The notes under the pieces are model-generated. The model did not search any database, had not been told where the DNA came from, and was given only the letters and a program-made list of their open reading frames with translations. Below, piece by piece: positions 32,071 through 60,430 of a stretch of 64,000 nt of DNA. The position numbers and the translations under genes were made by a program. Each line of letters opens with the position of its first letter. The first letter of the stretch is position 1. Source of the DNA: Candidatus Omnitrophota bacterium (GTDB taxonomy: Bacteria > Omnitrophota > Gorgyraeia > 2-01-FULL-45-10); assembly GCA_023818895.1 (NCBI GenBank), contig JAMWCX010000003.1:219823-283822 (forward strand), written 5' to 3'.

Positions 32071-32184
32071 AAAGTCTTGACGAGCGCCCGCCTTATTTAT
32101 TAAAATATCATAATACTATCCATAAATCTAAAATGGGATAGTGTAATTATTTTATCAATACTGCTTAATATTAAGGGGTTAGGC

Positions 32185-44748: not shown

Positions 44749-45741
44749 ATGACCAAAAAAGCGGTCGTTCTATTCTCTGGAGGACTAGACTCGATACTGG
44801 CAACACGGCTTATGATGGAGCTGGGCATAGAGGTTGCGTGCGTTCACTACTATATCGAGTTTGCTGCCTGCGGAGGAGGGGAAACATCGGCTGTTAATGC
44901 CGCTAAAATGCTCGGCGTTCCGATCAAGATATTCGATATCACTGCAGAATATCTTGAAATGTTCAGAAATCCAAAACATGGTTATGGCGCGAATATAAAT
45001 CCCTGCATCGACTGCAAGATACTTATGCTTAAGAAGGCAAAGGAATATATGGCCGAAATTGGCGCTTCGTTTCTTGTGACCGGCGAGGTCCTCGGCGAAA
45101 GGCCGATGTCGCAGCGCAGAGATGCTCTAAACATTATAGAAAAAAACAGCGGCGTGCGCGGCATTCTCCTTAGGCCGCTTTCAGCAAAGTTGCTGGTGCC
45201 GACTATTCCGGAAGCAAAAGGCGTCGTTGACCGCGAAAAGCTTCTCGATATACAGGGCCGTAGCCGCAAGATACAGATGGAGCTTGCCGCGCGTTTCGGC
45301 ATAAAGGAATATCCAAATCCATCAGGAGGATGTCTTCTCACCGACCCAGGTTTTACAAAAAGAGTCAAAGACCTCATAGCGCACAACGACCTGAGCCTTG
45401 AAAGCCTGCGGCTTTTGAAGGTTGGCCGCCACTTCAGGCTGTCAGACAAGTCGAAACTTATCATAGGACGAGACAAAAATGAGAACAAATATATGCAGAG
45501 CCTCGCCAAAGACGGCGATGTCTGCATAAGGCTTAAAGACAGGCAGGGCCCATTTTCGATAATTCGCGGCTTTGCCGACGAGCCTCTTATAAAACGGGCA
45601 TGTGAAATAGTGGCGCAGCATACTAAATTCCGAAGCGAAGAATTTCTCAATATCCTTTGGTGGCGAAAAGGGGGTGATGAAAGGCAGATAGTTAAGGCCA
45701 GGGCGGCGTCCGCCGAAGAAATCAGCAAAAGCAGGATTTGA
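44749..45741 (+). CDS. ThiI-like PP-loop ATP pyrophosphatase (no THUMP/rhodanese domains) with uncharacterised C-terminal domain; putative sulfurtransferase
   Basis: 330 aa; PP-loop LFSGGLDS at residues 8-15; LVTGEVLGERPMSQRRDALNII…ILLRPL aligns with the ThiI catalytic region (VVTGEALGQVSSQTL…ILRPL); CIDCK motif. Confidence 0.5.
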   Translation: MTKKAVVLFSGGLDSILATRLMMELGIEVACVHYYIEFAACGGGETSAVNAAKMLGVPIKIFDITAEYLEMFRNPKHGYGANINPCIDCKILMLKKAKEYMAEIGASFLVTGEVLGERPMSQRRDALNIIEKNSGVRGILLRPLSAKLLVPTIPEAKGVVDREKLLDIQGRSRKIQMELAARFGIKEYPNPSGGCLLTDPGFTKRVKDLIAHNDLSLESLRLLKVGRHFRLSDKSKLIIGRDKNENKYMQSLAKDGDVCIRLKDRQGPFSIIRGFADEPLIKRACEIVAQHTKFRSEEFLNILWWRKGGDERQIVKARAASAEEISKSRI

Positions 45742-45766
45742 CATATCGATTGACATATGTTCTAAT
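45738..45766 (+). promoter_or_regulatory. putative sigma70-type promoter for the riboswitch-thiE-thi4 transcript (-35 TTGACA 45738-43, 17-nt spacer, -10 TCTAAT 45761-66)
   Basis: Hexamers and spacing seen in sequence; the -35 is part of a direct repeat TTGACATAT-CGA-TTGACATAT. Confidence 0.4.
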
Positions 45767-45778
45767 ATACACGCAAGT

Positions 45779-45867
45779 TCAGGGGAGGTTGTAAGGCAGC
45801 CTGAGAGTTCCGCGCAATAAGCGGATTACCCGAAGGACCTGATCCGGATAATGCCGGCGTAGGGAAG
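45779..45867 (+). promoter_or_regulatory. TPP (THI-box) riboswitch aptamer
   Basis: …AGGGGAGG…CAGCCUGAGAG…AUUACCCGAAGGACCUGAUCCGGAUAAUGCCGGCGUAGGGAAG… matches the conserved CUGAGA and ACCUGAUC.GGAUAAUGCC.GCGUAGGGAA cores of RF00059; upstream of thiE. Confidence 0.85.
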
Positions 45868-45880
45868 AAACATCAAGGCT

Positions 45881-45906
45881 CTTATGCATCGGCATAAGGG
45901 TTTTTT
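45881..45906 (+). terminator. riboswitch expression-platform intrinsic terminator (CUUAUGC-AUCG-GCAUAAG + GGGUUUUUUAUUU)
   Basis: 7-bp perfect hairpin followed by U6 immediately after the aptamer; the ORF-track ATG at 45884 lies inside this hairpin. Confidence 0.6.
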
Positions 45907-45931
45907 ATTTACAGGCGAGGTGAGCGCTATA

Positions 45932-46576
45932 ATGAGAAAAATAAAAGACCGTAGCCTATACCTTGTGATAAGCGAGGAATATTCGGATGGCAGGCCGGCA
46001 ATTTGGATCGCCGAAAGAGCGGTTGCCGGCGGTGTCGATATAATCCAGATGCGGGAAAAGAATAAATCGATGCAGGAGCTTGTTGAAATCGGCAGCAAGA
46101 TGCGTGATATCTGCCAGAAATCAAGCGCCCTCTTCATCGTAAACGACGATCCGACGCTCGCTCTACAACTGCGCGCAGATGGGGTTCATCTTGGCCAAGA
46201 AGATATAGCCCGTTTTCCGATAAAAAAAGCGAGAGATATTCTCGGCCCCGAAAGGATAATAGGCGTTTCCACGCACTCAATTGAGGAGGCGAAAGAAGCC
46301 TGCGCAAAAGAAGTGGATTATATAGCTTTTGGGCCTATATTTCCAACCGAGGCCAAGGGCTATCATATAGGCAAAGAAGGCATAAAAGAGGTCTTGGCGC
46401 TGGTAAAAAAACCCGTATTTTTCATAGGGGGCATAAATCTGTCAAATATAGCAGAAGTCCTGGCTGAGGGAGGTCGTAATATCGCTCTCATAAGACCGAT
46501 AACTCAGGCGGTGGATGTTGAGTCTGCGGTAAAAAAGTTTAAGAAGGCTCTTATACGGCCGGAAGGAGCAAGATGA
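45932..46576 (+). CDS. thiE: thiamine-phosphate synthase (start re-called to ATG 45932, downstream of the riboswitch terminator)
   Basis: 215 aa from [16 protein letters not shown]…; GAGGT RBS 8 nt upstream; ThiE motifs (…VQLREK-like IQMREK, …GVHLGQED…, …VSTH…). Confidence 0.8.
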
Positions 46577-47346
46577 AACTGGATGAGATAAAGATATCTA
46601 AAGCGATAATAGAAACCTATAAGGACAAGCTTGTGTCCGCCCTGGACATAGATGTAGCTATAGTTGGGGCCGGCCCCGCCGGCATGGTTTGTGGTTATTA
46701 TCTCGCCAGGAATGACAGGAGGGTTGCGATATTCGAGCGGAAGCTTTCCGTCGGAGGCGGGATGTGGGGCGGCGGCATCATGTTCAATGAGATAGTGGTG
46801 CAGGAAGCGGCGAAGAGGATACTGGACGAATTCGGCGTCAGGACGAAAAGCTACGAGAAAGGCTATTATACCGCCGATTCAATCGAAGCCGTCTCTACCA
46901 TATGCTCAAGGACCGTCAAGGCAGGGGTCAGAATATTTAATCTCATGAGCGTCGAGGATGTGATGGTAAGGAAGAACAGAATCTGCGGGCTTGTTCTGAA
47001 CTGGACAGCCGTTGAAATAGCGGCCTTGCATGTTGACCCCATCTCAATGGCGGCGCGCTTTGTAGTAGATGCGACAGGACACGCCGCGGAGGTTGCCCGC
47101 ATAGCAGAAAAAAAGTCCGGACTGAAATTAAAGACAAAAACAGGCAGGACAATAGGCGAAGGCTCCATGTGGGCGGATGTCGGCGAGGATACGATCGTGA
47201 AAAACTCTAAAGAGGTTGCCCCAGGCCTTTATACCTGCGGCATGTGCGCCAACGCTGTTCTCGGCGGTCCGCGCATGGGACCAATATTTGGCGGGATGCT
47301 TCTTTCAGGCGAGAAAGTGGCAAAGGATATCCTGCAGCGTTTATAA
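46573..47346 (+). CDS. thi4: thiazole synthase Thi4 (archaeal-type, His in place of the yeast suicide Cys: [11 protein letters not shown])
   Basis: 257 aa; FAD dinucleotide fold [10 protein letters not shown], Thi4 family pattern; 4-nt overlap with thiE. Confidence 0.85.
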
Positions 47347-47370
47347 TCTTCCATAGAAATAATAAAATTC

Positions 47371-47398
47371 TTGACAAAAATGAATATTGGTGTATAAT
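47371..47398 (+). promoter_or_regulatory. near-consensus sigma70 promoter (-35 TTGACA 47371-76, 16-nt spacer, -10 TATAAT 47393-98) for the Rrf2-cysK operon
   Basis: Perfect hexamers seen in sequence, 88 nt upstream of the Rrf2 GTG start. Confidence 0.65.
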
Positions 47399-47486
47399 CA
47401 CTACTAAAATAATCATATTTATCGGAATTTATATGGTAAACCAAGTTGCCAGTTTGAAAGAGCAAAAAGCTGTGAGGTGACAGCGG

Positions 47487-47951
47487 GTGAAGATAACATA
47501 TAAAGGCGATTACGCTCTCAAGGCTATATTCCAACTCGCCCTGCACTATGGTAAGTCGGATGAGTGTGTGATGTCCATTTCCGAAATAGCCAAACTTGGT
47601 GATATGCCTGTTAAATTTCTTGAGCAGATACTCCTTGCGCTTAGAAGGGGCGGTTTCGTGAAATCAAGACGCGGAGTGAAAGGCGGTTTTCTTTTGGCCA
47701 GGCACCCGAAAGAGATAAAGGTGGGTGAAGTGATAAGGTTTATGGAGGGGCCCATAGAGCCCATAGCCTGCGTTGAAAAGGAATCATACAAAGGATGTAA
47801 GGATGTTGCGGGATGCATATTTCGCGATATTTGGAAAGAGGTTAAAAATTCTGTATGCGCCATAGTTGATGCGCTGACCTTCGAAGACCTGATAATTCGT
47901 TATAAGGAAAAGAGCTTAAAAAAATCATCCATGCTTGAATACAATATATAG
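47487..47951 (+). CDS. Rrf2-family transcriptional regulator (CymR/IscR-like, Cys-x8-Cys-x5-Cys; GTG start)
   Basis: 154 aa; N-terminal w[21 protein letters not shown]…, putative Fe-S ligands in [18 protein letters not shown]. Confidence 0.8.
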
Positions 47952-47959
47952 AGGAAAGT

Positions 47960-48889
47960 ATGAGTATGAATATAGCCAACAATGTAATAGAACTTATAGG
48001 GAAAACGCCCATGGTGCGTTTAAGGCGCCTTATTACCTCCGGTATGGCCGAGGTTGTTGCTAAGCTTGAGTATTTCAACCCAGGCGGAAGCGTAAAAGAT
48101 AGGATATGCCTCGCCATGATAGAGGACGCAGAGAAAAAGGGGCTTCTCAAAAAGGGCGCGACCATAATAGAGCCAACGAGCGGTAATACGGGCATAGGCC
48201 TTGCCATGATAGCCGCCGCAAAAGGATATAAGTGCCTTCTTACCATGCCAGACACCATGTCAGTGGAGCGCCGCCAGATTCTCAGATCATACGGCGCTGA
48301 GATAGTGTTAACACCGGGCACTGAAGGAATGAAGGGCGCTGTGAAGAAGGCGGAAGAATTATGCAAAAAAACAGCCGACAGCTTCATGCCTCAGCAGTTC
48401 GAAAATCCGTCGAACCCGGCCGCCCACCGGCGTACCACCGCCGTAGAGATACTTGAGCAGACAAAGGGAATGCTCGATGCTTTTGTGGCAGGAGTTGGGA
48501 CAGGGGGAACCATTACCGGTGTCGGTGAAGTCTTGAAAAAGCACAATGCCGGCATAAAAATAGTCGCTGTTGAACCGAAAAAAAGCCCGGTACTATCAGG
48601 CGGACCGGCCGGACCTCACCGTATACAGGGTATAGGCGCAGGTTTTATTCCGCGCGTCCTTAACCGTAGCGTTATTGACAGAATAATCCAGGTGGAAGAT
48701 AATGATGCGTTTCTTGTCGCAAAGGCCTTGGCCAAAGACGAAGGCCTTTTTGTGGGGATATCGAGCGGCGCCGCCGTTTACGCAGCTCTTAAGATAGCAA
48801 AGGAGATGGGTGAAGGTAAGAGGGTGGTCGCTATTCTACCGGATACAGGCGAACGTTATCTATCAATGGAAGAGCATATTAAGGCATAG
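47960..48889 (+). CDS. cysK: cysteine synthase A (O-acetylserine sulfhydrylase)
   Basis: 309 aa; PLP-lysine motif [27 protein letters not shown]. Confidence 0.9.
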
Positions 48890-48915
48890 GTTCGGGATAT
48901 GGAGGGTAAGACAGC

Positions 48916-50133
48916 ATGGCAAAGACGATAAAAGAGATAAACGAAAAGATAAAACGCGGCGAGGCGGTAGTAGTGACAGCCGAAGAGGTCATCGACCTTG
49001 TCGAAAAGAAGGGCCTTAAAGAAACGGCAAGGCATGTCGATGTCGTTACAACAGGGACATTCGGGCCGATGTGCTCGTCCGGCGTTTACTTGAATGTGGG
49101 TCACGCCAAACCGAAGATAAAGTTAGGAGGAGGTCATGTGACTTTAAACGGCGTGCCGGCGTATACGGGCTTCGCCGCCGTGGATATTTACATAGGCGCA
49201 ACCGCTATGCCTGACGACGACCCGCGCAATAAGGTCTATCCAGGCGAGTTTAGATATGGAGGCGGTCATGTAATAGAAGAGCTTGTGTCAGGTAAGGATA
49301 TAGTGCTCGAAGGCGCCGCTTACGGCACAGACTGTTATCCGCGCAAGCATATAAAGACTTATATAAATATAAAGGACTTGAACGAGGCCGTGCTTTTGAA
49401 TCCGCGCAACTGCTACCAGAACTACAATGTGGCGGTGAATGCATCTGACTCAAAGACAATCTACACATACATGGGCGCGCTCAAACCGGGCTTCGGCAAC
49501 GCTAACTATTGTTCGGCAGGGCAGCTTTCGCCGCTTCTTAAAGATCCGCTATACAGGACCATCGGAGTGGGTACCAGGATATTTCTTGGCGGCGGCGTCG
49601 GCTATGTCTACTGGCATGGCACCCAGCATAATCCTTCGGTGAAGCGCAAGGATAACGGTGTTCCGCAGGTGCCCGCCGGCACAATCGCAGTCATGGGCGA
49701 TCTCAAGCAGATGAGCCCTTCCTGGCTTAGGGGAATATCGTTTCAGGGATACGGCGTTAGCCTTACCGTCGGTCTCGGAATTCCGATACCTATCCTAAAT
49801 GAGGATGTGCTCAAGGATGCGGCCATAAAGGATGAAGATATCTGGACCCAAATCGTCGACTATAGCGAAGACTATCCACAGGGAAAACCAAACTCGCTCG
49901 GCGAGGTGAACTATAAACAACTCAAGAGCGGCTCTATTAATATTAAAGGTAAAGAGGTCCCGACGTCTTCTCTTTCGAGCTATGTGAAAGCGCTCGAAAT
50001 CGCAGAGGAACTCAAAAAATGGATAAAGGATAGAAAGTTTTTTCTGACAGAATATGTTCAAAGGCTGCCTGGAGCCGAATCAGGGTATTCTTTTAAGCCG
50101 CTGAAAGAAAGACCAGTTAAAGAGGAGGAATAA
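48916..50133 (+). CDS. DUF39/COG1900-family protein (putative sulfide-incorporating homocysteine biosynthesis enzyme)
   Basis: 405 aa; family assignment by recalled similarity to the methanogen COG1900 protein pattern, lacking CBS domains; immediately downstream of cysK. Confidence 0.5.
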   Translation: MAKTIKEINEKIKRGEAVVVTAEEVIDLVEKKGLKETARHVDVVTTGTFGPMCSSGVYLNVGHAKPKIKLGGGHVTLNGVPAYTGFAAVDIYIGATAMPDDDPRNKVYPGEFRYGGGHVIEELVSGKDIVLEGAAYGTDCYPRKHIKTYINIKDLNEAVLLNPRNCYQNYNVAVNASDSKTIYTYMGALKPGFGNANYCSAGQLSPLLKDPLYRTIGVGTRIFLGGGVGYVYWHGTQHNPSVKRKDNGVPQVPAGTIAVMGDLKQMSPSWLRGISFQGYGVSLTVGLGIPIPILNEDVLKDAAIKDEDIWTQIVDYSEDYPQGKPNSLGEVNYKQLKSGSINIKGKEVPTSSLSSYVKALEIAEELKKWIKDRKFFLTEYVQRLPGAESGYSFKPLKERPVKEEE

Positions 50134-50144
50134 CATTTCGAGAA

Positions 50145-51050
50145 ATGGAACATTTTTTTCACATATTTTTACATTATCTTGCAGAGATACTACCGGCACT
50201 CGCTATAGGATTTTTCATAAGCGGCCTGGTACATGAACTTGTCCCAGAAGAATCGGTTCTGAAATACCTGGGCTCGGGTGGCATAAAACCGATACTGGCC
50301 TCCACCGTTATCGGAACAATCCTTCCGGTCTGCTGTATTGGGAGCCTCCCGATAGCGGTTAGTTTCTACAAAAAAGGAGCTAAGCTCGGTCCTGTGCTCG
50401 CCTTTCTCGTTGCTACCCCTGCAACGTCTGTGAGCGCGCTACTCGTAGCCTACAGTGTCTTGGGCCCGCTTTTTACAGTCTATATTTTCTTCGCGGTAAT
50501 ATTAATGGGTGTCGCTATGGGATTTATAGGTGACGCTATAAGGTATACGCCAAGGACTGCGCCTGCCAAAGAAGTCTGCCCACATTGCGAGATAGACTCA
50601 ACGCATATTCACAAACACATGAAAAAGTCGCCGAAAGAGAGAATCGTCTCTGCTCTTAAATATGCGTACTTAGAATTGCCAAGGGAAATAGGCCTAGAGC
50701 TTCTAGCCGGAATACTGCTCGCCGCATTTGTGGCCACTTTTGTGCCTGTGGGGCGGCTTATAAAGATATATCTCAGCGGACCGCTAGGGTACGCCTTTGC
50801 TATCATATTTGGCATAGTTATGTATATTTGCTCAACCGCCACAGTGCCTCTGGTAGACAGCCTCATGAGACAGGGAATGAATTCCGGCGCCGGCATGACG
50901 CTTCTTCTTATCGGCCCGGTCACAAGCTATGGAACTATTCTTGTCCTTAGGAAAGAATATGGCCCGAAGGTTCTTGCCATATTTATCATTTCGCTTATAA
51001 TACTATCATTGATACTGGGTTTAGGCTTTTACGCTATAAGACCCACTTGA
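50145..51050 (+). CDS. DUF318/COG0701-type permease with paired Cys (LPVCCIGSLP), ArsP-like
   Basis: 301 aa, 8-9 predicted TM helices, conserved CC in a TM segment. Confidence 0.5.
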   Translation: MEHFFHIFLHYLAEILPALAIGFFISGLVHELVPEESVLKYLGSGGIKPILASTVIGTILPVCCIGSLPIAVSFYKKGAKLGPVLAFLVATPATSVSALLVAYSVLGPLFTVYIFFAVILMGVAMGFIGDAIRYTPRTAPAKEVCPHCEIDSTHIHKHMKKSPKERIVSALKYAYLELPREIGLELLAGILLAAFVATFVPVGRLIKIYLSGPLGYAFAIIFGIVMYICSTATVPLVDSLMRQGMNSGAGMTLLLIGPVTSYGTILVLRKEYGPKVLAIFIISLIILSLILGLGFYAIRPT

Positions 51051-51113
51051 GGTTGGAAATACGTTTGAGGTCAGGTGGCTCTTGGCGAGAGACGAGTTAT
51101 GGAGGATTAATAA

Positions 51114-51275
51114 TTGGATAAAGTTCGTCCTGTCTTCATCAGGCTGCTAATCGCGGCAGCCACCGTATATGTAATCGGAACAACTTTTATATTGTCAGAA
51201 CTGATAGAAAAAATCGGCAGGCTGGAGTTTGAGATGATTCATCTTACCGGAAAATGCACCGCGCACCATAAGTGA
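51114..51275 (+). CDS. unannotated small membrane ORF (53 aa, TTG start) with C-terminal CxxHH
   Basis: Translation LDKVRPVFIRLLIAAATVYVIGTTFILSELIEKIGRLEFEMIHLTGKCTAHHK; GGAGG 8 nt upstream; follows an in-frame TAA-TAA; below the ORF-track size cut-off. Confidence 0.3.
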   Translation: MDKVRPVFIRLLIAAATVYVIGTTFILSELIEKIGRLEFEMIHLTGKCTAHHK

Positions 51276-51291
51276 TTGAAAGATTAAGATC

Positions 51292-52554
51292 GTGAAACCG
51301 CTGGTGATATTAATATTTTTGGCGGCATATACGCTCATAGTCCTTAAAAAAGGTAACCCATTCGTTGTCCTCGCCTCGGCAATAGGCGCATTCCTTGCGA
51401 TAGGCGCGCTTAGTTTTCGCGAGGCCTTCCTTAGCATAAACTTCAATGTGTTGGGAGTCTTTTGGGGCACGATGGTCCTTTCAGGATTATTTATCTTTTC
51501 AAAAGTTCCCGCTTTTTTGGCCACAATGCTCGTTGACAGGGCACGCTCCATAGGGACAGCGATGCTCTACGTATGCTTTTTATCTGGTTTCATTTCGAGT
51601 TTTGTCGAGAATGTCGCCACCGTCCTCATCGTGGGCCCTATAGCGCTTGAGGTTGCCAGAAAACTTAAGGCAGATCCAGTCCCTTTCCTTATAGGGCTCG
51701 CCGTCTCATCGAACTTGCAGGGCTGCGCCACAATGGTTGGTGACAGCCCTAGCATAATACTCGCCATGTCGAGCGGGATGAATTTTATGGATTTCTTTTG
51801 GATGAAAGGGAGGCCCGGCATAACGTTCGCCGTTGAGCTGGGAGCGCTCGCCTCATTCTTGGTGCTCTGGCTAATGTTCAGGAAATACAAGGAGCCTGTC
51901 AGCCGGGTTGAAGAAACGAGTGTCAAGACATGGATTCCGACCATTCTAATGACCATGATGATGTTGACGCTCGGCCTTTCCAGCTTTATTCCTGATAAAC
52001 CACCTTATACGGTAGCCGGTATCTGCGTCATATACGGCATCGTGGGCCTTCTCTGGCACGAGCTGCGTCACAAAGAATCAATATCTATTTTTAGAGATCT
52101 CGACTGGCATACCTTCTTTTTCCTGATAGGCATATTTATATTAGTCGGCACTCTTACGCAGCGGGGGATAGTAGACGACATAGCGAAATATATCATAACC
52201 TACACAAAGGGCAATGTATTTATTGCCTTCACAATTATCGTCTGGGTTTCGGTAATACTATCAGCCTTCATCGACAATATTCCATATACGATAGCGATGA
52301 TACCTGTCGCCAAGATTGTCGCAAGCTCTATGGGTATAGGGTCGGAACTTTTTCTATTCGGGCTTCTGGTGGGCACCTCTTTAGGCGGCAATATAACACC
52401 TATCGGGGCTTCTGCGAATATCGTCGCCGTTGGCATGCTTCGGAAAGAGAAATATCAAGTCAGCTTCGGCGACTTTGTGAAGATAGGACTGCCTTTTACT
52501 ATAGCGGCCGTTGGCACGGCCTATCTTTTTCTTTGGGTCGTGTGGGGAAAATAA
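51292..52554 (+). CDS. ArsB/NhaD-superfamily anion permease (GTG start)
   Basis: 420 aa, ~12 TM helices, internal duplication typical of ArsB/NhaD/citrate-transporter fold. Confidence 0.6.
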   Translation: MKPLVILIFLAAYTLIVLKKGNPFVVLASAIGAFLAIGALSFREAFLSINFNVLGVFWGTMVLSGLFIFSKVPAFLATMLVDRARSIGTAMLYVCFLSGFISSFVENVATVLIVGPIALEVARKLKADPVPFLIGLAVSSNLQGCATMVGDSPSIILAMSSGMNFMDFFWMKGRPGITFAVELGALASFLVLWLMFRKYKEPVSRVEETSVKTWIPTILMTMMMLTLGLSSFIPDKPPYTVAGICVIYGIVGLLWHELRHKESISIFRDLDWHTFFFLIGIFILVGTLTQRGIVDDIAKYIITYTKGNVFIAFTIIVWVSVILSAFIDNIPYTIAMIPVAKIVASSMGIGSELFLFGLLVGTSLGGNITPIGASANIVAVGMLRKEKYQVSFGDFVKIGLPFTIAAVGTAYLFLWVVWGK

Positions 52555-52592
52555 TTACTCTTTAGCAGTGGCTGCTGTGATATAATCTAAAG

Positions 52593-52847
52593 TTGCATAA
52601 CGAATGGAGAAATGCCATGCCGATCCGCAAGATGCTGTTATTAGGCCTTACAGCGCTTTTGATAGCCACCGGGCTCATCGCATTGACATGTGCGGTCACA
52701 AGCGCTCAAGGGCCCGCTTCTCAGGGTGAAGAGCTTTTGGCTAAGATTAATGAAATACTAGCTAATCAGAAAGATATCATCGAAGATTTAGCCGCCATCA
52801 AGGAAGAACTGCGGATAATAAAGATAAGGGTTACCCAGCAGTTGTAG
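52593..52847 (+). CDS. small secreted coiled-coil protein (signal peptide; start possibly at MPIRKM 52617)
   Basis: 84 aa; hydrophobic LLLGLTALLIATGLIAL followed by AQG cleavage-like site and heptad-rich tail. Confidence 0.35.
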   Translation: MHNEWRNAMPIRKMLLLGLTALLIATGLIALTCAVTSAQGPASQGEELLAKINEILANQKDIIEDLAAIKEELRIIKIRVTQQL

Positions 52848-52866
52848 CGCGAAAGGACTATGTGAC

Positions 52867-53592
52867 ATGGCTACCGAAAACGTCTCTTATCTGGTTGCGT
52901 TCACAGCCGGAATTCTGACATTTCTTTCACCCTGCATATTGCCTTTAGTGCCCTCATTCATCGCCTATATAACAGGTGTTTCATTCGGCGATCTTAAAGA
53001 CGGACACAAGAGCGAAAAGATACGTTTCAGCATACTGAGCCATACCATACTATTCATACTCGGTTTCTCTATCGTGTTTATAATTCTCGGTCTTACCGCT
53101 ACAGCTATAGGCCAAGCGCTCTTTCACTATCAGAGACCTATCAGGATAGGAGGGGGTGCGCTGATAGTGATTTTTGGTCTTACGCTGGCCGGCATAATAA
53201 AGATACCGTTTTTGCAGAAGGAACATCAGTTCCATGTGCACGCGAAAAAGGCCAGCTACGTCGGTTCATTTTTGGTGGGAGTGACCTTTGCCGCCGCATG
53301 GACACCTTGCGCCGGTCCGATACTCGGTTCGATACTCGTGATGGCCGGCACAGGGGAGAGCGTTGCCGAAGGAGCGAGGTTACTAACTTTATATTCGGCC
53401 GGTATAGCGATACCGTTTCTCTTCACAGCGCTTGCGACGCATTCTTTTTTGGGGTATTTTAATCGCTTCAAGAGGGTAATGGCCGGCGTCAATGTGATAG
53501 CGGGTATATTCCTGATCATAATAGGTATCCTTATAATGACCGATTACCTCAATGTTCTATCGGAAAAGATGCTCAGTATCTTTTCGAAATAA
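52867..53592 (+). CDS. ccdA: cytochrome c-type biogenesis / thiol-disulfide transporter CcdA (DsbD beta-domain family)
   Basis: 241 aa, two conserved Cys in TM1/TM4 (FLSPCILPL…WTPCAGP). Confidence 0.8.
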   Translation: MATENVSYLVAFTAGILTFLSPCILPLVPSFIAYITGVSFGDLKDGHKSEKIRFSILSHTILFILGFSIVFIILGLTATAIGQALFHYQRPIRIGGGALIVIFGLTLAGIIKIPFLQKEHQFHVHAKKASYVGSFLVGVTFAAAWTPCAGPILGSILVMAGTGESVAEGARLLTLYSAGIAIPFLFTALATHSFLGYFNRFKRVMAGVNVIAGIFLIIIGILIMTDYLNVLSEKMLSIFSK

Positions 53593-53678
53593 TAGTTAAG
53601 GAGACGTTTCCATGATAGCGCGCCGGCACTTTGTCAATAGCTATCGTAGTATATATTATAAAATAGGGAAAAGCGCAT

Positions 53679-54173
53679 ATGAATAAAAGGATATTTTTTA
53701 AATCGCTTGCGCTCATGCTGGCCGTGTTTGTTCTGAGTGCATGCGCCCCAAGAGGCTTGCGCGTGGCGGACGCAGCGCCCGATTTCAGGCTTCGTGACAT
53801 AAATGGGAATATTGTCCAGCTGTCTGACCACAAAGGAAAGGTCATAATACTTGACTTCTTCGCCACGTGGTGTCCACCGTGCAAGATGGAAGTCCCGGAT
53901 TTTGTGGAATTGCAGCGGCGCTACGGCGATAGAGGCTTCACGATAATAGGAGTATCGCTTTCAAGACTGGGCGATACGCAAGGCTTCGTGCAGGCTTTCG
54001 GCGTCAATTATCCGGTTCTTATAGCCGATAGTGCCGTAGCGGAGGCATATGGGCCAATAAGGTCGATACCGGTCACTTTTGTTATAGACAAGGATTTCAA
54101 TATTGCCAGGAAGTATATAGGTTACAGGCCTAAAGAGGTCTTCGAGAACGATATAAAACAGCTGCTCAAATAG
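53679..54173 (+). CDS. TlpA/ResA-family periplasmic thioredoxin (thiol-disulfide oxidoreductase)
   Basis: 164 aa, signal peptide plus WCPPC active site. Confidence 0.8.
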   Translation: MNKRIFFKSLALMLAVFVLSACAPRGLRVADAAPDFRLRDINGNIVQLSDHKGKVIILDFFATWCPPCKMEVPDFVELQRRYGDRGFTIIGVSLSRLGDTQGFVQAFGVNYPVLIADSAVAEAYGPIRSIPVTFVIDKDFNIARKYIGYRPKEVFENDIKQLLK

Positions 54174-54187
54174 AAAAGAAAGGAAAT

Positions 54188-54412
54188 ATGACGGACGATA
54201 AGATAAAGAAAGCACTCGAGAAGATCAGGACAGCGCTTCAGCAAGACGGCGGTGATATAGAACTTGTGAGCGTAGAGGATGGGGTGGTCAAGGTGCGCCT
54301 TGTGGGCGCTTGTGCGGGTTGTCCGATGAGCCAGATGACGCTCGCGAACTTCGTCGAAACTAAACTTAAGGAAGCGGCGCCGGAGATAAAGCGAGTCGAG
54401 CCCGTGCAATAA
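54188..54412 (+). CDS. nfu: NifU-like C-terminal domain protein (Nfu-type Fe-S carrier)
   Basis: 74 aa, CAGCPMS (CxxC) motif in the …VKVRLVGACAGCPMSQ… context. Confidence 0.7.
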   Translation: MTDDKIKKALEKIRTALQQDGGDIELVSVEDGVVKVRLVGACAGCPMSQMTLANFVETKLKEAAPEIKRVEPVQ

Positions 54413-54451
54413 ACTGGACAAAATCCGCGCTTGCGCACCTTCTGGCGCTGA

Positions 54452-55141
54452 ATGCCGGCCGGCGACATCCCCAGAGCCGCGGGAAACCAAATCATGATAG
54501 TAACAAGACAAAAAGGGATCAAGGAAATACTCAAGTATATTGAGGGACGGAAAAATATATTTGTGGTCGGATGCGGCGAATGTTCTACGACTTGCAAGAC
54601 AGGGGGCGAGGAAGAAGTGAAGGCTTTGAAGGACACCCTAGAAAAGGAGGGTAAGTTTGTTACCGGCTGGTGCGTTCCGGAGGCTCCTTGTATCGCCGCT
54701 AAAGTGAAGATCGAGCTTGCCAAACACAGGGCTCAGATAGAATCTTCGGATGCCATACTTGTGATGGCGTGCGGCCTGGGTGTACAATCGGTGAAGGAGA
54801 ACTTGCGCCTCGAGAGAGAGGTCCACGTAGGTTGTGATACCCTTTTCATGGGGGCCATCGACCCTGCCGGGTCTTTCTTGGAAAAGTGCGCGGCATGCGG
54901 CGACTGCGTACTCGAACTCACCGCGCTCATATGTCCGGTTACGAGGTGCGCAAAATCGCTTTTGGACGGTCCTTGCGGCGGCCAGGATAAGGGCAAGTGC
55001 GAGGTCGATAAGAACAAAGACTGCGCATGGATACTTATTTATAATGAGCTCAAGAAGCAGAATAAGCTTCAACTGCTTAAAGAGCGAAAACCGCCCAAAG
55101 ACCATTCCAAAAACATAAAACCGCGTTCACTCACGTTATAA
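54452..55141 (+). CDS. Cys-rich protein resembling the methylene-tetrahydrofolate reductase C-terminal (MTHFR_C/MetV-like) Zn/Fe-S domain; start possibly MIVTRQ at 54494
   Basis: 229 aa; motifs VVGCGECSTTC, CAACGDC, ICPVTRC, GPCGG…GKCEV…DCAW. Confidence 0.4.
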   Translation: MPAGDIPRAAGNQIMIVTRQKGIKEILKYIEGRKNIFVVGCGECSTTCKTGGEEEVKALKDTLEKEGKFVTGWCVPEAPCIAAKVKIELAKHRAQIESSDAILVMACGLGVQSVKENLRLEREVHVGCDTLFMGAIDPAGSFLEKCAACGDCVLELTALICPVTRCAKSLLDGPCGGQDKGKCEVDKNKDCAWILIYNELKKQNKLQLLKERKPPKDHSKNIKPRSLTL

Positions 55142-55167
55142 CCGGCATATGCTGCCAGAGGAAACCT

Positions 55168-55626
55168 ATGCGCAGAATATGCGGCGCTGTCTTTCTGATC
55201 GTGTCCATAGCAGCTTTCAGCTCTCTTTCTTCTGAGCCCACTTTTGAGGAATGGCAGAGCCTTACCGACGAGGCGCTCGACCATTACTATTACCATCGGT
55301 ATAAGGAGGCCGTCGAAGTGGCCCGGGAAGCGCTTAAGGTTGCCATAGAACTGTTCGGTCCCGAAGACCTGAAGGTAGTCGGCTCGCTTGATAATCTTGC
55401 CTCGTATCTAGCGGCAACCGGCGAATATGAGGAAGCCGATGAGCTGTATCAACGGGCTTTTTCCATACTCCAGAAAAAGCTGCCAGCCGATGATGGCTAC
55501 CTTGCTATCTTCATGGATTACTTGGCGATATTCTACGAGAAGATAGGCCGCGTCGAATACGCGGAAGAGCTGAGATCGCGCGCCAGAAGTATCAGGTTAA
55601 AAAAAACTAAGCAGGACCAAAAATGA
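55168..55626 (+). CDS. secreted TPR-repeat protein
   Basis: 152 aa, signal peptide then helical repeats (…YKEAVEVAREALKVAIELFG…YEEADELYQRAFSI…). Confidence 0.5.
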   Translation: MRRICGAVFLIVSIAAFSSLSSEPTFEEWQSLTDEALDHYYYHRYKEAVEVAREALKVAIELFGPEDLKVVGSLDNLASYLAATGEYEEADELYQRAFSILQKKLPADDGYLAIFMDYLAIFYEKIGRVEYAEELRSRARSIRLKKTKQDQK

Positions 55627-55638
55627 GGATAATGTCTT

Positions 55639-58224
55639 ATGTTGAATTTCGATAAAATGACGCTGAAGGCGCAAAGCGCCGTCCAGTCGGCTCTTGATAT
55701 CGGTCGTCGCTACTCAAATCAGGAAATAGGCCCGGAGCATCTTATTCTGGGGCTTCTCGCTGTAGACGGAAGCATTGCCGTCTCCATACTCGAAAAGATG
55801 GACGTCGATATAGCCGCCTTCAAAAGGGATATAGAGGCCTTGATCGCCCAAAAGCCCAAGGTCGAAGCCTCGGAAAGTCAGCAATATTTTTCCAGGGACG
55901 CCAGAGAGCTGCTCGAAGGGGCCGCACGACAGGCCCACGCTCTTCGCGATGAATATATCAGTGTTGAGCATATCCTTCTGGCCGCCGCCGAATTTAACCG
56001 CAAAGGGGAGCTTGGGGCTATCCTGCGAAAATACGGTATAAATAGAGAGGCTATTCTCAATGTGCTGCGAGAAGTAAGGGGTTCGCAAACGGTGACAGAT
56101 CAGAACCCGGAAGATAAATACAACGCTCTCGAAAGATATGGTAGAGACCTTACGAAGCTTGCTCGCGAAGGTAAGCTCGATCCAGTCATAGGCCGCGATG
56201 AGGAGATACGCCGCGCTATCCAGGTGCTTGCCCGCAGGACCAAAAATAATCCGGTTCTCATAGGCGACCCCGGTACGGGGAAGACCGCTATAGCAGAAGG
56301 CCTTGCCAGACGTATAGTAAGCGGTGATGTACCTACGACTCTGAAGAATAAAAGGATAGTGGCGCTTGATATCGGTGCGCTCGTGGCGGGGGCCAAGTAC
56401 CGAGGAGAGTTTGAAGACCGGCTTAAAGCGGTATTGAAGGAGATTCAGACAAAAGCTGGAGAGATCATTCTGTTTATCGATGAGCTCCATACGCTTGTTG
56501 GCGCGGGCGGGGCGGAAGGCGCCGTTGATGCCTCAAATATGCTCAAACCGGCTCTTGCGCGCGGTGAGCTACGATGTATCGGAGCCACGACGCTGGATGA
56601 GTACCGCAAGTATGTGGAGAAGGATAAGGCGCTTGAGCGCAGGTTCCAGCCGATATTTGTAGGCGAGCCTTCGGTGGAGGATACCATAGCGATATTGCGT
56701 GGATTAAAGGAACGCTATGAAATTTACCATGGCGTAAAGATAAAGGACGATGCCTTGGTGAGCGCCGCCGTTCTTTCCGACCGGTATATATCGGATAGAT
56801 TTCTGCCGGACAAGGCGATAGATCTTGTTGATGAGGCCGCCGCAAAGCTGCGTATAGAGATAGACAGCCTTCCTACTGAGCTTGATGAGCTGGAGCGCAA
56901 AATAATGCAGTATGAAATAGAGCGCGAAGCGCTTAAAAAGGAAAAAGACGCCTCATCCCGCGAAAGGCTTAAGAAAATGGAAGAGGAGCTCGAAGGCCTA
57001 AAGAAGAAATCCGCTGAACTTAAGAGCCACTGGGAAAAGGAGAAACAGACCATAGATAGGATCCGCAAGATAAAAGAGAGGCTGGAGCAGGCCAGACTGG
57101 ATGAGGAAAGGTTCGAAAAGGAGGCGCGGCTCGACAAAGTCGCGGAGATACGCTATGGAGTGATAAGGGATCTCGAAAGAGAGCTTGATGCGGAGAATAA
57201 GAAGATGCGGGAGATCCAGAACAAGAATAGGATGCTTAAAGAAGAGGTAGATGAGGAGGACATTGCTGAGATAGTATCAAAATGGACGGGGATACCGGTA
57301 TCGAAACTGATGGAGGGTGAGAAAGAAAAACTTGTCCATATGGAAGAGCGTCTCAGATCCCGCGTTGTTGGCCAAGATGAGGCGGTTACGCTCGTATCCA
57401 ACGCGGTGCGTCGGTCGCGTTCAGGACTTTCCGACACTAACAGGCCGATAGGCTCGTTTTTATTTCTCGGGCCAACAGGCGTGGGGAAGACATATCTTGC
57501 GAAGACGCTGGCATGGTTTCTTTTTGACGACGAGAACGCCATAGTACGAATAGATATGTCGGAATATATGGAGAAGCATTCGGTGTCGCGTCTAATCGGC
57601 GCCCCGCCGGGCTATGTGGGATACGAGGAGGGAGGGCAGCTCACTGAGCGAGTGCGGCGCAGGCCGTACTGCGTGATCCTCTTTGACGAGATAGAGAAGG
57701 CGCATCACGATGTATTTAATATACTTTTGCAAATACTTGACGACGGCCGTCTTACCGACGGGCAGGGGCGGGTTGTGAATTTCAAAAACACCGTTATTAT
57801 CATGACCTCCAACATAGGCAGCACCTATTTCCAGGACGATTCCATTTCGAAAGAAGGTTTGAAGCGCGCTGTGCAGGATGAGGTGCGCAAACATTTCAGG
57901 CCTGAGTTTGTAAACCGACTGGACGAGATAGTCATATTCAATAAATTGTCCGAAAATGATATCGAAAAAATAGTTGACCTCCAGCTCAAGGAACTTTCAG
58001 AACGCCTTGCATCGCAGGGCATAAAGCTAGAGATCGACAAGAAGGCGCGCGAAAAACTCGCCAAAGAGGGGTTCGACCCCGACTTCGGCGCCAGGCCGCT
58101 TAAACGCTTAATACAGCGGGAAATAGAAGACAAGCTTGCCCTCGAACTTCTCGAAGGTAAGTACAGCGACGGCAGCAAGGTCACTGTAAGTATCGATCCC
58201 AAGAGCGGCAAATTCACCTTATAA
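55639..58224 (+). CDS. clpB: ATP-dependent chaperone ClpB
   Basis: 861 aa, two AAA+ modules ([17 protein letters not shown]), long middle coiled-coil domain. Confidence 0.95.
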
Positions 58225-58268
58225 TAACGATCCCAGAAAGCGGTTAGCAACGGGTTTTTAATAAAATA

Positions 58269-58293
58269 ATAGTTGACAAAAATAGTCAGGTAT
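58269..58293 (+). promoter_or_regulatory. IscR type-1 operator ATAGTTGACAAAAATAGTCAGGTAT overlapping the -35 (TTGACA 58274-79) of the iscRSU promoter
   Basis: 24/25 match to the type-1 IscR consensus ATASYYGACTRWWWYAGTCRRSTAT (consensus recalled from the E. coli literature); internal TGAC…GTCA dyad; 17 nt upstream of the iscR start. Confidence 0.55.
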
Positions 58294-58309
58294 GATATCT
58301 TATTTACGT

Positions 58310-58750
58310 ATGAAGCTTTCAACGAAATCTACATACGGATTAAGGGCGATGCTTGCGATTGCTATGAAAGATAAGAATACGGCAACGTCTATAAATGATA
58401 TATCAGGCGCCGAAGGCATATCGGTGGCGTATCTTGAGCAGCTTCTCAACAGGCTCAGAAGGCATGGGCTTGTCGAGAGCGTCCGTGGTCCAAAAGGCGG
58501 TTATATATTATCAAGGCGCCCTTCTGAGATAACCGTCGCTGACATAGTAAAGACGCTCGAAGGCAATATTTATCCGGTACACTGTGTATCACCGAAGAAC
58601 GGCCCTTTGAGCGCCTGCTCTAGAGGAGCGTCATGCGTTCCGAAAATAGTATGGCACAAACTAGCCAGGGCCATAAGCGATTGTCTTGAATCCATCACCC
58701 TGGAAGATCTGTGCGCCGAAGCGATAAGGATTAAACGAAGAAAATCTTAA
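58310..58750 (+). CDS. iscR: Rrf2-family Fe-S regulator IscR (start re-called to MKLSTKSTYG)
   Basis: 146 aa from 58310; wHTH and Cys-x10-Cys-x5-Cys-x6-His (HCVSPKNGPLSACSRGASCVPKIVWH); directly upstream of iscS-iscU. Confidence 0.8.
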   Translation: MKLSTKSTYGLRAMLAIAMKDKNTATSINDISGAEGISVAYLEQLLNRLRRHGLVESVRGPKGGYILSRRPSEITVADIVKTLEGNIYPVHCVSPKNGPLSACSRGASCVPKIVWHKLARAISDCLESITLEDLCAEAIRIKRRKS

Positions 58751-58758
58751 GGAATACC

Positions 58759-59928
58759 ATGCGAAAAGTATACCTTGATAATAACGCCACCACGAGGATG
58801 CGTGAAGAAGTTCTTGAGGCTATGCTACCATATCTAAAGGATATCTACGGAAATGCCTCAAGCGTTCACCAATTCGGCCGAGCGGCGCGCGCGGCACTTG
58901 ACAATGCGCGTAACCAGGTCGCCTCATTTCTTGGGGCAGCAAGCCCTGAAGAGATAATATTTACCTCCGGCGGAACAGAGTCAGACAACCTGGCGATAAA
59001 AGGCGTAGCACACGCAATGCGCTCAAAAGGAGATCACCTCATCACAACCGCAATAGAGCACAGCGCTGTTTTAAATACTTGCCGGGCGCTCGAGAAAGAT
59101 GGCTATAAGGTTACATATCTGCCTGTAGACGAATACGGCTTGGTTTCAGTGGATAGCTTGCGTAAGGCTATAGGCCCCCAAACAGTACTTATTAGCATAA
59201 TGTATGCCAACAATGAGGTTGGAACGATCGAGCCGATAACCGAACTCGCTGAGGTGGCAAAAGAAAGAGGGGTTTATTTCCATACGGACGCGGTGCAGGC
59301 ACTAGGAAAGATATCTTTTGACCTTAGTTCTCTTCCGGTGGACCTTTTGTCGATGTCCGGCCACAAGATTTATGGCCCGAAGGGCGTGGGAGTTCTTTAT
59401 ATAAGGAAGGGAACACGTATAGATGCCATTGCTCACGGCGGCCATCATGAGATGAATAAAAGGGCCGGTACCGAAAATGTGCCTGCCATTGTAGGGCTTG
59501 GCAGGGCTTGTGAACTCGCCAAAAAAGAACTGCCAGACGAGTGGCGGAAGTTGATAGCGCTTCGTGACAGGTTATACCAGGGCATAATGTCAAAGATACC
59601 GCACGTTAGTCTGTTCGGACATCCGGAAAAGCGGCTTCCCAATACCCTAAATGTCGGATTCAAATATCTTGAAGGGGAGTCAATCCTTCTCAATCTCGAC
59701 ATGGAGGGCATAGCGGTCTCCACAGGCTCAGCCTGCACTTCCGGCACCCTTGAGCCTTCGCACGTTCTAACCGCTATGGGCATAGACCCGGCGGACGCTC
59801 AAGGGGCGATACGGTTTTCTCTCGGCAGGGACAATACAGAGGAGGACATTGATTACGTTCTTACGATGCTGCCTCCTATAATACAGAGACTAAGGGATAT
59901 GTCGCCTCTTTACGAGAAAGGAAATTAA
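58759..59928 (+). CDS. iscS: cysteine desulfurase (NifS/IscS)
   Basis: 389 aa; PLP Lys in SGHKIYGPKG, active-site loop SGSACTS. Confidence 0.9.
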   Translation: MRKVYLDNNATTRMREEVLEAMLPYLKDIYGNASSVHQFGRAARAALDNARNQVASFLGAASPEEIIFTSGGTESDNLAIKGVAHAMRSKGDHLITTAIEHSAVLNTCRALEKDGYKVTYLPVDEYGLVSVDSLRKAIGPQTVLISIMYANNEVGTIEPITELAEVAKERGVYFHTDAVQALGKISFDLSSLPVDLLSMSGHKIYGPKGVGVLYIRKGTRIDAIAHGGHHEMNKRAGTENVPAIVGLGRACELAKKELPDEWRKLIALRDRLYQGIMSKIPHVSLFGHPEKRLPNTLNVGFKYLEGESILLNLDMEGIAVSTGSACTSGTLEPSHVLTAMGIDPADAQGAIRFSLGRDNTEEDIDYVLTMLPPIIQRLRDMSPLYEKGN

Positions 59929-59929
59929 G

Positions 59930-60373
59930 ATGGAAGGCCAGTATTCAGAAAAGGTTATGGAACATTTCAGGAACCCCCATAATGTTGGCGAGATACCGGA
60001 TGCCGACGGCGTAGGAAATGTAGGCAATCCTGTTTGCGGCGACATCATGAGGCTTTATATAAAGGTCGATGAAAACGAGGTTATAACAGACGCTAAATTC
60101 AAGACATTCGGCTGTGGGGCAGCTATAGCCACCTCTAGTATGGTGACCGATCTCGTTAAAGGTAAGACCATAACCGAGGCACTTAGGATATCCAACCGGG
60201 CGGTGGCCGAAGCGCTCGGAGGACTGCCAAAGATAAAGATGCACTGCTCGGTTCTTGCCGAACAGGCTCTTCGTAGCGCGATTAATGATTATCTTGCCAA
60301 ACACGGCAAGCCTACAATTAAGGAGCCTCGCTCGATCCATGAGAATTCTGGTGAACCTAATCTGGGGGATTAA
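59930..60373 (+). CDS. iscU: Fe-S cluster assembly scaffold (NifU/IscU)
   Basis: 147 aa; three cluster Cys (GNPVCGD, GCGAAIA, MHCSVLA). Confidence 0.9.
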   Translation: MEGQYSEKVMEHFRNPHNVGEIPDADGVGNVGNPVCGDIMRLYIKVDENEVITDAKFKTFGCGAAIATSSMVTDLVKGKTITEALRISNRAVAEALGGLPKIKMHCSVLAEQALRSAINDYLAKHGKPTIKEPRSIHENSGEPNLGD

Positions 60374-60430
60374 GGTAAGCCCCGTCGGCCCAAAAAGTTC
60401 GGCGCGGTAAAATAAAAAAGGTTCCGCAGG

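Follow-up and report, generated by a model that had tools for sequence, protein, structure and literature searches.

What do the genes at positions 47371-55141 of a 64-kb stretch of Candidatus Omnitrophota DNA (contig JAMWCX010000003.1 of assembly GCA_023818895.1, hereafter the window) have in common, and do they form one operon? A first-pass annotation had suggested that they are a single module for taking up an oxidised sulfur compound, reducing it and channelling the sulfide to cysteine, homocysteine and Fe-S clusters. All eleven gene identities that it named held when checked by open reading frame (ORF) listing and profile searches. The interval contains 11 genes, and the thirteen originally counted are reached if a TPR gene and ClpB, both beyond 55141, are added. 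The account that we favour, with moderate confidence, is a conserved, probably autoregulated operon of an Rrf2 regulator, the cysteine synthase CysK and a COG1900/DUF39 protein, followed by lineage-specific genes for metal transport, periplasmic thiol redox and Fe-S assembly, which may be co-transcribed with it and are not one pathway.

The cysK-COG1900 Core

The COG1900 protein matched PF01837 (HcyBio) at profile positions 1-349 of 349 with 517 bits (E 3.5e-155), carried no fused NIL, ferredoxin (Fer4) or CBS domain in Pfam searches, and was not of the MMP16/COG1900d type (TIGR03287, 111 bits vs a cutoff of 364), so that the original assignment stands. No solved structure matched it by sequence. 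Cysteines C53 (within GPMCSS), C140, C166 and C199 were invariant in 21 sequences of the clade described below, and the positions of C53 and C140 fit those given in PMC12068725 for the essential Cys54 and for Cys131 of MA1821, of which they may be the counterparts.

A scan of one genome per species gave 80 COG1900 loci (numbered with the prefix L), of which 68 had enough upstream sequence. Their COG1900 proteins were 68-90% identical to that of the window and came from Omnitrophota, Desulfobacterota, Dehalococcoidia, Spirochaetota, Elusimicrobia, Saganbacteria and Margulisbacteria. The window protein itself was identical to a copy on contig JAMWDH010000001.1 of GCA_023818765.1 (L001). In 39 of the 68 loci, cysK was the gene directly 5' of COG1900, and in 26 of 37 an Rrf2 gene stood directly 5' of cysK; in the window these last two are separated by 8 bp. 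The loci with these linkages came from Omnitrophota, Desulfobacterota, Elusimicrobia, Saganbacteria, Margulisbacteria and Spirochaetota. Other common neighbours of COG1900 were nfu, thi4, nifS/iscU, a PP-loop protein and a LarE-like PP-loop ATPase. Rrf2-cysK-COG1900 is a genuine unit kept across many phyla, and the part of the block downstream of it is a lineage-specific mosaic.

The pairing of CysK and COG1900 with two permeases next to CcdA/TlpA had been called an undescribed operon. For CysK with COG1900 this was correct for the literature searched, in which ferredoxin and COG2122 were the only reported DUF39 neighbours and neither cysK nor Rrf2 was mentioned (for the genetics of the family see PMC5764234, PMC4045070, and PMC12068725); the pairing is nevertheless very common in nature, as the counts above show. 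As a separate observation, stand-alone COG1900a proteins were 68-75% identical between different phyla (L002-L081), an unusually high degree of conservation, which suggests strong constraint or lateral spread.

Promoter and Rrf2 Regulator

The sigma-70 promoter described earlier as near-consensus matched the consensus at all twelve positions. An alignment of 17 orthologous promoters showed that the -35 and -10 boxes were kept, that the spacer varied freely, and that a stretch of about 28 bp directly 3' of the -10 box was conserved. The element within this stretch occurred once in the window, vs 0 expected in shuffles, and once in each related locus, each time 5' of the Rrf2 gene, including L124, where MetY stands in for COG1900. 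To our knowledge it is unlike IscR or CymR sites. A simple inverted-repeat operator was rejected, none being found in the promoter at a seed of 6; the element is weakly dyad-symmetric in the window, and the dyad is clearer in L124 (GACTAA-N10-TTAGTC) and L005 (CTCTA-N9-TAGAG).

The regulator was first described as a three-cysteine Rrf2 protein, and its three cysteines do lie at ligand positions in the C-terminal half (C95-x8-C104-x5-C110). The triad was kept in the orthologues and in most Rrf2 genes 5' of cysK-COG1900, those of other phyla included; the Rrf2 genes at this position in Saganbacteria and Margulisbacteria were without it. The protein scored below all NCBIfam equivalog cutoffs (IscR, CymR, NsrR, RirA and SufR), e.g., 99.8 vs 195 for CymR and 83.4 vs 207.6 for IscR. 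Its best solved relative was 4cic (E 4e-29), followed by Bacillus CymR. The 4cic entry is deposited under the name BadM/Rrf2 family only; we take it to be the IscR of Thermincola potens, of which C-x8-C-x5-C is presumably also the cysteine spacing. Bacillus CymR, a member of the Rrf2 family, acts in complex with CysK and controls cysK plus importers of sulfur sources.

The three-cysteine motif of the regulator is the one seen in cluster-binding members of the family. Judged by the promoter, the cysteine triad and the known behaviour of Rrf2 proteins, its most likely target is the element at 47399-47424, where it would repress its own operon, and the repression may be lifted when the Fe-S cluster, hence the supply of sulfur or iron, runs short. 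A second Rrf2 paralogue (58292-58750), 10 kb from the first (47487-47951), is about 33% identical to it according to a tblastn cross-match from L002, and has a different cysteine spacing, counted from the translation (C98-x12-C111-x5-C117). Outside Omnitrophota, Rrf2 proteins encoded 5' of cysK-COG1900 were slightly closer to this second paralogue.

Exchange of COG1900 for MetY, MetX and MetW

In L105, L110, L112 and L124, NCBIfam models placed MetY-CysK-MetX-MetW in the COG1900 position. The only one of the four that includes the upstream region, L124, had the same Rrf2 gene, promoter and element, and all four shared the downstream genes for DUF318, the secreted mini-protein, CcdA, TlpA, Nfu, the MetV-like protein and IscR-NifS-IscU. 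COG1900 is therefore a homocysteine module exchangeable for direct sulfhydrylation. The exchange supports the COG1900 assignment even in a locus that lacks the partner gene, and, as far as gene position can tell, it supports a role of COG1900 as the homocysteine-forming step. The downstream block is not specific to COG1900, because the same block follows MetY, which needs no reductant.

No MetY, MetX, MetW, CysE, FeoB or TusA was found in the 64-kb window. It had been argued that a canonical route to homocysteine elsewhere in the genome would make the block redundant; such a comparison proved uninformative, because sister lineages have MetY, MetX and MetW instead of COG1900, and because one locus has both. 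This locus (L044:4493-12445) contains Rrf2, MetY, CysK, MetX, MetW, Nfu, COG1900, NIL-ferredoxin and a LarE-like gene.

Absence of the NIL-Ferredoxin Gene from the Locus and Window

In Desulfovibrio vulgaris a NIL-ferredoxin and COG2122 are genetically required for homocysteine synthesis, as is the NIL-ferredoxin in M. acetivorans, and the NIL-ferredoxin is regarded as the electron-supplying subunit of L-ASST (L-aspartate-semialdehyde sulfurtransferase). A gene of about 135 codons for a NIL plus two-[4Fe-4S] ferredoxin lay directly after COG1900 in 59 of the 80 loci, and COG2122 adjoined COG1900 in 13. Hidden Markov models (HMMs) built from the neighbours detected no NIL-ferredoxin in the locus of interest or in any of the six frames of the window, and there was no COG2122 HMM match in the window. 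The missing partner, suspected from the first, was thus confirmed for the locus and the whole window.

A neighbour-joining tree placed the COG1900 proteins of loci with no NIL-ferredoxin gene beside them in one monophyletic Omnitrophota clade (22 of 22), and outside this clade the gene was adjacent with about six exceptions. In one branch of the clade COG1900 is followed by Nfu, in many cases together with an ArsB-like gene; the other, to which the window belongs, carries CcdA-TlpA and the MetV-like gene. Among the best 120 of about 7,900 NIL-ferredoxin homologues, none was traced to the known long contigs of the clade, which is weak evidence.

A stand-alone NIL protein of 79 aa, encoded 5' of COG1900 in L082 and L168, was considered as a split partner. 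This was rejected, because the same protein ends a separate ThiS/ThiF/CysM/sulfite-reductase cluster, without COG1900, in L169-L171. Such proteins were abundant in Omnitrophota (1,735 matches, e.g., L169:10001-10240, L170, L171, and L082:9743-9982). The separate cluster comprised Rrf2, CysH, a PiT permease, JAB, ThiS-CysM, sulfite reductase, TusA, a ThrC-like pyridoxal phosphate enzyme, ThiS and ThiF, and looks like a protein-thiocarboxylate route to cysteine and homocysteine with its own Rrf2 regulator.

Downstream Genes

The motifs of the DUF318 permease were kept in five orthologues, with LPVCC in the first half and a central loop of the form CPHC-x4-5-HxHxH flanked by lysine and arginine. 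It scored 192.8 against a cutoff of 300 for SO_0444 Cu/Zn efflux and 138.9 against 325 for SaoE, and has ICST where these two families have CSC. Its nearest named relatives (SO_0444 Cu/Zn, SaoE and ArsP) export soft metals or metalloids, and the substrates of characterised relatives are zinc, copper or organoarsenicals. Orthologues of the 53-aa mini-protein were found in L002, L082, L084, L086 and L113 (41-60% identity); the His-rich tail was kept, the exact CxxHH pattern was not. Because of the families nearest to DUF318, its Cys/His loop and this tail, the middle part of the block was read as metal-ion handling, and by analogy the permease and mini-protein are most likely a soft-metal transporter.

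The slot between the mini-protein and the secreted protein varied. It held an ArsB-like gene in the window and L082, and a PMR1-type Ca/Mn P-ATPase in L002, L105, L106, L108, L112 and L113 (TIGR01522, 809 vs 798 bits), and was empty in L084 and L086. Insertions in this region included FeoAB with a DtxR-like gene (L110, L113) and a response regulator, CsoR, YHS and an RND pump (L082). In L010 and L153 an RseC-like protein replaced DUF318 and the mini-protein. Around the slot, the order DUF318, mini-protein, secreted protein, CcdA, TlpA, Nfu, MetV-like was kept within the clade, although Rrf2, CcdA and TlpA were just 53-74% identical between members.

The secreted coiled-coil protein was encoded directly 5' of CcdA in L002, L003, L010, L082, L084, L086 and several metagenome loci, and was not detected ahead of CcdA in L118, L137, L144, L152 and L153. 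It belongs to a family of about 70-84 aa with the motif (I/V)K(I/V)RVTQ, which usually stands directly 5' of CcdA and matches no known family; without CcdA, members occurred as a tandem pair (L155:3453-3892) and beside an RseC-like gene (L143:1488-1691). In the metagenome loci, the MetV-like gene had CcdA-TlpA as a constant pair 5' of it, and the TlpA of the window scored 98.7 bits against a cutoff of 170 for the ResA subfamily model. Proteins of the CcdA and TlpA types pass electrons outward to periplasmic protein thiols and reduce periplasmic protein disulfides. In other Omnitrophota, nfu lay directly beside COG1900, at -0.2 or +1.3 kb.

The MetV-like protein had 13 invariant cysteines in an alignment, and no solved structure matched it by sequence. 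In acetogens, the MetV subunit carries [4Fe-4S] clusters and serves electron transfer (PMC8515935). The MetV-like gene was never beside metF in more than 100 loci, nor did the window ORFs that were scanned with Pfam include a metF. In closer relatives, a metagenome scan gave the order CcdA-TlpA(-Nfu), MetV-like, IscR-NifS-IscU; in more distant Omnitrophota, the MetV-like gene was a single gene flanked by PheT-MgsA on one side and MTHFS-RNase Y-YmdB on the other, and one locus had it next to FolE. This backbone recurs in the window, with PheS/PheT, MgsA at 43401, and later MTHFS at 60431, RNase Y and YmdB, and therefore the sulfur and Fe-S genes accreted around a pre-existing MetV-like gene. 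The gene is probably folate-linked, and synteny, with the gene as an anchor, best explains why it is part of the block.

IscR-NifS-NifU followed the MetV-like gene in most related loci, and TPR-ClpB was found between the two in the window/L001 and L086 alone. NifS and NifU scored above their cutoffs (TIGR03402, 597 bits vs 531; NifU_clost, 205 vs 188).

Table 1. Features of the block and its surroundings in window coordinates, the upstream unit being listed last.
Feature	Position	Strand	Basis and remarks
Sigma-70 promoter, TTGACA-16 nt-TATAAT	47371..47398	+	12/12 consensus match
Operator-like element CACTACTAAAATAATCATATTTATCG, candidate Rrf2 site	47399..47424	+	directly 3' of -10 box
Rrf2-family regulator	47487..47951	+	PF02082 E 7e-32, 110.8 bits; TIGR00738 107.5 bits vs 73.3
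CysK, cysteine synthase A (O-acetylserine sulfhydrylase)	47960..48889	+	TIGR01139 469 bits vs cutoff 351
COG1900a/DUF39 large subunit, predicted L-aspartate-semialdehyde sulfurtransferase, 405 aa, stand-alone	48916..50133	+	PF01837
DUF318/ArsP_1 permease, LPVCC motif, central loop CPHCEIDSTHIHKH	50145..51050	+	PF03773 E 1e-44, residues 2-293 of 301
Single-pass membrane mini-protein, 53 aa, C-terminus CTAHHK	51114..51275	+	read from sequence; no family match
ArsB/NhaD/CitMHS-superfamily permease	51292..52554	+	CitMHS 197 bits, ArsB 50 bits; NCBIfam all far below cutoff
Small secreted coiled-coil protein, 76-84 aa, C-terminal IKIRVTQQ	52593/52617..52847	+	signal peptide read from sequence
CcdA-type DsbD_TM protein	52867..53592	+	PF02683 E 2e-20; cysteines in LSPCILP and WTPCAGP
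TlpA/ResA-like thioredoxin lipoprotein, lipobox LSAC, WCPPC	53679..54173	+	AhpC-TSA and Redoxin Pfam
Nfu (NifU C-terminal domain) Fe-S carrier, CAGC	54188..54412	+	PF01106 E 3e-30
MetV-like Cys-rich Fe-S protein, DUF5981, DGPCGG	54452/54494..55141	+	PF12225 E 8e-33
TPR gene	55168-55626	+	Pfam
ClpB	55639-58224	+	Pfam
Second Rrf2 (IscR-like), NifS, NifU/IscU	58292..60373	+	IscR model 124 bits, below cutoff
ThiI-like PP-loop/NFACT-R_2 protein	44749-45741	+	Pfam, NCBIfam
TPP (thiamine pyrophosphate) riboswitch	45771-45883	+	Rfam 61.9 bits vs gathering 54.3; directly 5' of thiE
thiE and sulfide-dependent thi4 (TIGR00292)	up to 47346	+	Pfam, NCBIfam; upstream context overall 44749..47346

Genomic Context

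The shared direction of the genes, noted earlier, was rejected as a sign of an operon, because the window spans a replication origin and all genes to the right of it are on the + strand, from about 28 kb to 64 kb. The origin neighbourhood was placed at about 24900-32100: the - strand carries dnaN and dnaA (26160-27545) and the + strand rnpA, yidC, parA and parB, the sign of the GC skew switches near 28 kb, and each gene is oriented with its replichore. The tight run of genes does extend past 55141, to IscR-NifS-NifU.

The thiE-thi4 unit ends 25 bp ahead of the Rrf2 promoter and has its own riboswitch; the Rrf2 promoter therefore opens a separate regulatory unit. This riboswitch was the only one found, with no riboswitch or other RNA element within the block at the Rfam gathering threshold, nor at E<=1 over 47300-60500. 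The PP-loop protein, which is ThiI/MnmA-like with a C-terminal NFACT-R_2 domain, recurred a few kb or less from COG1900 in loci of Omnitrophota and Desulfobacterota (46-57% identity) and is probably a tRNA thiolation enzyme. A 6S/SsrS RNA gene was detected at 43088-43247 on the + strand, between pheT and the mgsA/rarA-like gene (72.4 bits vs a gathering threshold of 46.4). The remaining large ORFs of the window that were scanned were housekeeping genes.

Interpretation and Alternatives

In the account favoured here, a single strong promoter would drive Rrf2, CysK and COG1900a (47371-50133), and sulfide would be fixed into cysteine (O-acetylserine + HS-) and homocysteine (aspartate semialdehyde + HS- + 2 e-). 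The tightly packed extension (50145-60373) would probably be read through at least in part from the same promoter, and would consist of four accreted sets: the DUF318 permease, rich in Cys/His, and its mini-protein, which most likely transport soft metals; the variable transporter slot, filled in the window by the ArsB-like permease; the secreted mini-protein, CcdA and TlpA, which would carry reducing power to periplasmic thiols; and Nfu with, after the MetV-like, TPR and ClpB genes, IscR-NifS-NifU. The whole may be seen as an island near the replication origin that serves to fix sulfur, handle metals and assemble Fe-S clusters. The general theme of sulfide passing to cysteine, homocysteine and Fe-S clusters, which the first-pass annotation had proposed, fits the sulfide-dependent Thi4, the ThiI-like PP-loop enzyme, Nfu and NifS/NifU in and around the block.

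Several points weigh against this account. It does not account for the electron source of a COG1900 protein without NIL-ferredoxin, and its co-transcription beyond COG1900 rests on gene spacings of just 8-86 bp and on finding no convincing terminator. Despite about 40% protein divergence and many nearby insertions, almost all members of the sub-clade have DUF318 directly after the homocysteine genes; such retention points to a functional link with thiol amino-acid synthesis that an accreted mosaic leaves unexplained. The metal assignment is made by analogy, because DUF318 falls below the SO_0444 cutoff and has CST rather than CSC. Finally, a role of the permeases in sulfur uptake is possible, because CymR controls cysK together with importers.

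Foremost among the alternatives, which we nonetheless consider unlikely, is an Fe-S and thiol stress regulon, in which an IscR-like Rrf2 protein would lose its cluster upon iron or sulfur shortage, oxidants or Cu(I), and one long derepressed transcript would raise cysteine and homocysteine supply, soft-metal efflux, periplasmic thiol reduction, Nfu, ClpB and the Isc machinery. This agrees with the best solved relative of the regulator, presumably a Gram-positive IscR of the same cysteine spacing, with Nfu, IscR-NifS-NifU and ClpB in the same tight run, with copper-efflux genes (CsoR, YHS, RND) and FeoAB/DtxR inserted in the same region by relatives, and with the redox-related RseC-like protein in the DUF318 position of L010 and L153. 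However, the second Rrf2 paralogue has the better IscR score and directly precedes nifS-nifU, and the isc genes are therefore probably under their own control. Moreover, ClpB with its TPR gene occupies this position only in the window and L086, the Rrf2 proteins of Saganbacteria and Margulisbacteria lack the cysteines, like CymR, and no second copy of the operator-like element was found in the window.

We give little credence to the original proposal that the whole block is one pathway, in which the permeases would import an oxidised sulfur compound, CcdA/TlpA and Fe-S proteins would reduce it, and the sulfide would pass to CysK, COG1900 and Fe-S assembly. CysK, COG1900 and the MetY of sister loci consume sulfide, Thi4 and NifS/NifU are close by, and DUF318 does not move whichever homocysteine module precedes it; on the model of YeeE, sulfur species could pass through a Cys-lined pore, and CymR-type regulons combine cysK with sulfur importers. 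The proposal nevertheless gained no positive support. The families nearest to DUF318 export metals or metalloids and its CPHC...HxHxH loop is typical of metal binding, the ArsB-like gene is dispensable or exchanged for a Ca/Mn-type ATPase, the known substrates of CcdA/TlpA are protein disulfides, and the MetV-like gene is a synteny anchor. The window searches that were run gave no rhodanese, Sat, CysH or sulfate enzyme and no reductase for polysulfide, thiosulfate or sulfite, and relatives that assimilate oxidised sulfur use the separate CysH-PiT-sulfite reductase-ThiS/ThiF cluster.

Equally doubtful is a reading in which COG1900a shed its NIL-ferredoxin and came to receive sulfur and/or electrons by way of DUF318 and its mini-protein, CcdA/TlpA, Nfu and the MetV-like protein, the DUF318 pair being a transporter of sulfur species or thiols that serves sulfide-dependent cysteine and homocysteine synthesis, and not a metal pump. 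If true, reductive sulfur insertion would here be fed in a novel manner, through a membrane-linked supply.

Least probable of all, and rejected, is that the MetV-like protein, possibly with Nfu or the membrane thiol-redox proteins, donates electrons to COG1900 in place of the ferredoxin: the 22 clade loci without an adjacent NIL-ferredoxin against nearly all other loci with one, the negative HMM searches of the window, the MetV-like gene downstream in the sub-clade with CcdA-TlpA and the electron-transfer role of MetV speak for it, but the same block follows MetY-CysK-MetX-MetW, the MetV-like gene has folate-gene synteny and also stands alone between MgsA and MTHFS or beside FolE, a sister sub-clade (L006, L013, L022, L032, L041 and L046) has neither NIL-ferredoxin nor MetV-like gene near COG1900, and a NIL-ferredoxin could be encoded elsewhere in the clade genomes.

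The preferred account of a conserved operon with lineage-specific additions does not overturn current views, and its main yield is better annotation of Omnitrophota and related candidate phyla. DUF39/COG1900 is the main methionine pathway of many strict anaerobes, and its enzymology is unsettled, the donors of sulfur and electrons and the parts played by NIL-ferredoxin and COG2122 being among the questions. A clade without the ferredoxin gene at the locus is a natural experiment on the essentiality of that subunit, and COG1900 versus MetY/MetX/MetW at one chromosomal position is clean comparative evidence for the equivalence of the two routes. The Rrf2-cysK-COG1900 linkage, with the promoter-proximal element of the Omnitrophota loci, constitutes a candidate sulfide-assimilation regulon in uncultured anaerobes, and the DUF318 permease and its mini-protein are a conserved pair tied to thiol amino-acid genes, with no known substrate.

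Comparison with Known Systems

Compared with IscR, CymR, NsrR, RirA and SufR, the regulator scores below the equivalog cutoffs, and a more IscR-like paralogue precedes nifS-nifU 10 kb downstream. It is like IscR (T. potens, E. coli) and CymR (Bacillus) in its Rrf2 fold, in heading a cysteine-synthesis operon with its gene abutting cysK, and in an operator-like element that overlaps the promoter.

Among the downstream genes, the DUF318 permease resembles ArsP, SO_0444 and SaoE in its full-length PF03773 match, vicinal membrane cysteines and metal-type Cys/His loop; unlike them, it is paired with a His-rich mini-protein of 46-54 aa and linked to sulfur amino-acid genes instead of ars, czc or sao. 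The redox pair has the DsbD_TM protein with two membrane cysteines and the exported CxxC lipoprotein of CcdA-ResA/TlpA systems, which export reductant (System II of cytochrome c maturation; TlpA-ScoI for the maturation of copper sites), and differs from these in having no ccsBA/resBC, sco or msr nearby, with, in most clade loci, the secreted mini-protein before it and Nfu and the MetV-like gene after it. The MetV-like protein agrees with acetogen MetV in length (about 215 aa), PF12225, (N/D)GPCGG and the CxxCxxxC and CxxCxxC motifs; unlike the MetV of MetVF, it has no adjacent metF, its neighbours being MTHFS, FolE or IscR-NifS-IscU.

The L-ASST systems used for comparison were those of Methanosarcina (MA1821 with MA1822), Desulfovibrio (Dde_3007; DvMF_1464 with DvMF_0262 and DvMF_0044) and Dehalococcoides (DET0921-0919). 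In contrast to them, the window has neither a NIL-ferredoxin nor a COG2122 gene, and its Rrf2 and cysK ahead of COG1900 are a linkage that the papers searched do not report. Its COG1900 protein is a full-length PF01837 protein that, like bacterial DUF39 members, has no CBS domain; it is encoded in a sulfur amino-acid operon, its conserved cysteines may correspond to theirs, and it is 70% identical to the homologue of Dehalococcoides mccartyi (L043). The window has none of the genes of metY-metX-metW direct-sulfhydrylation operons and would form homocysteine from aspartate semialdehyde, not O-acetylhomoserine; the sister loci that carry such operons share with it the chromosomal position, cysK and the downstream genes.

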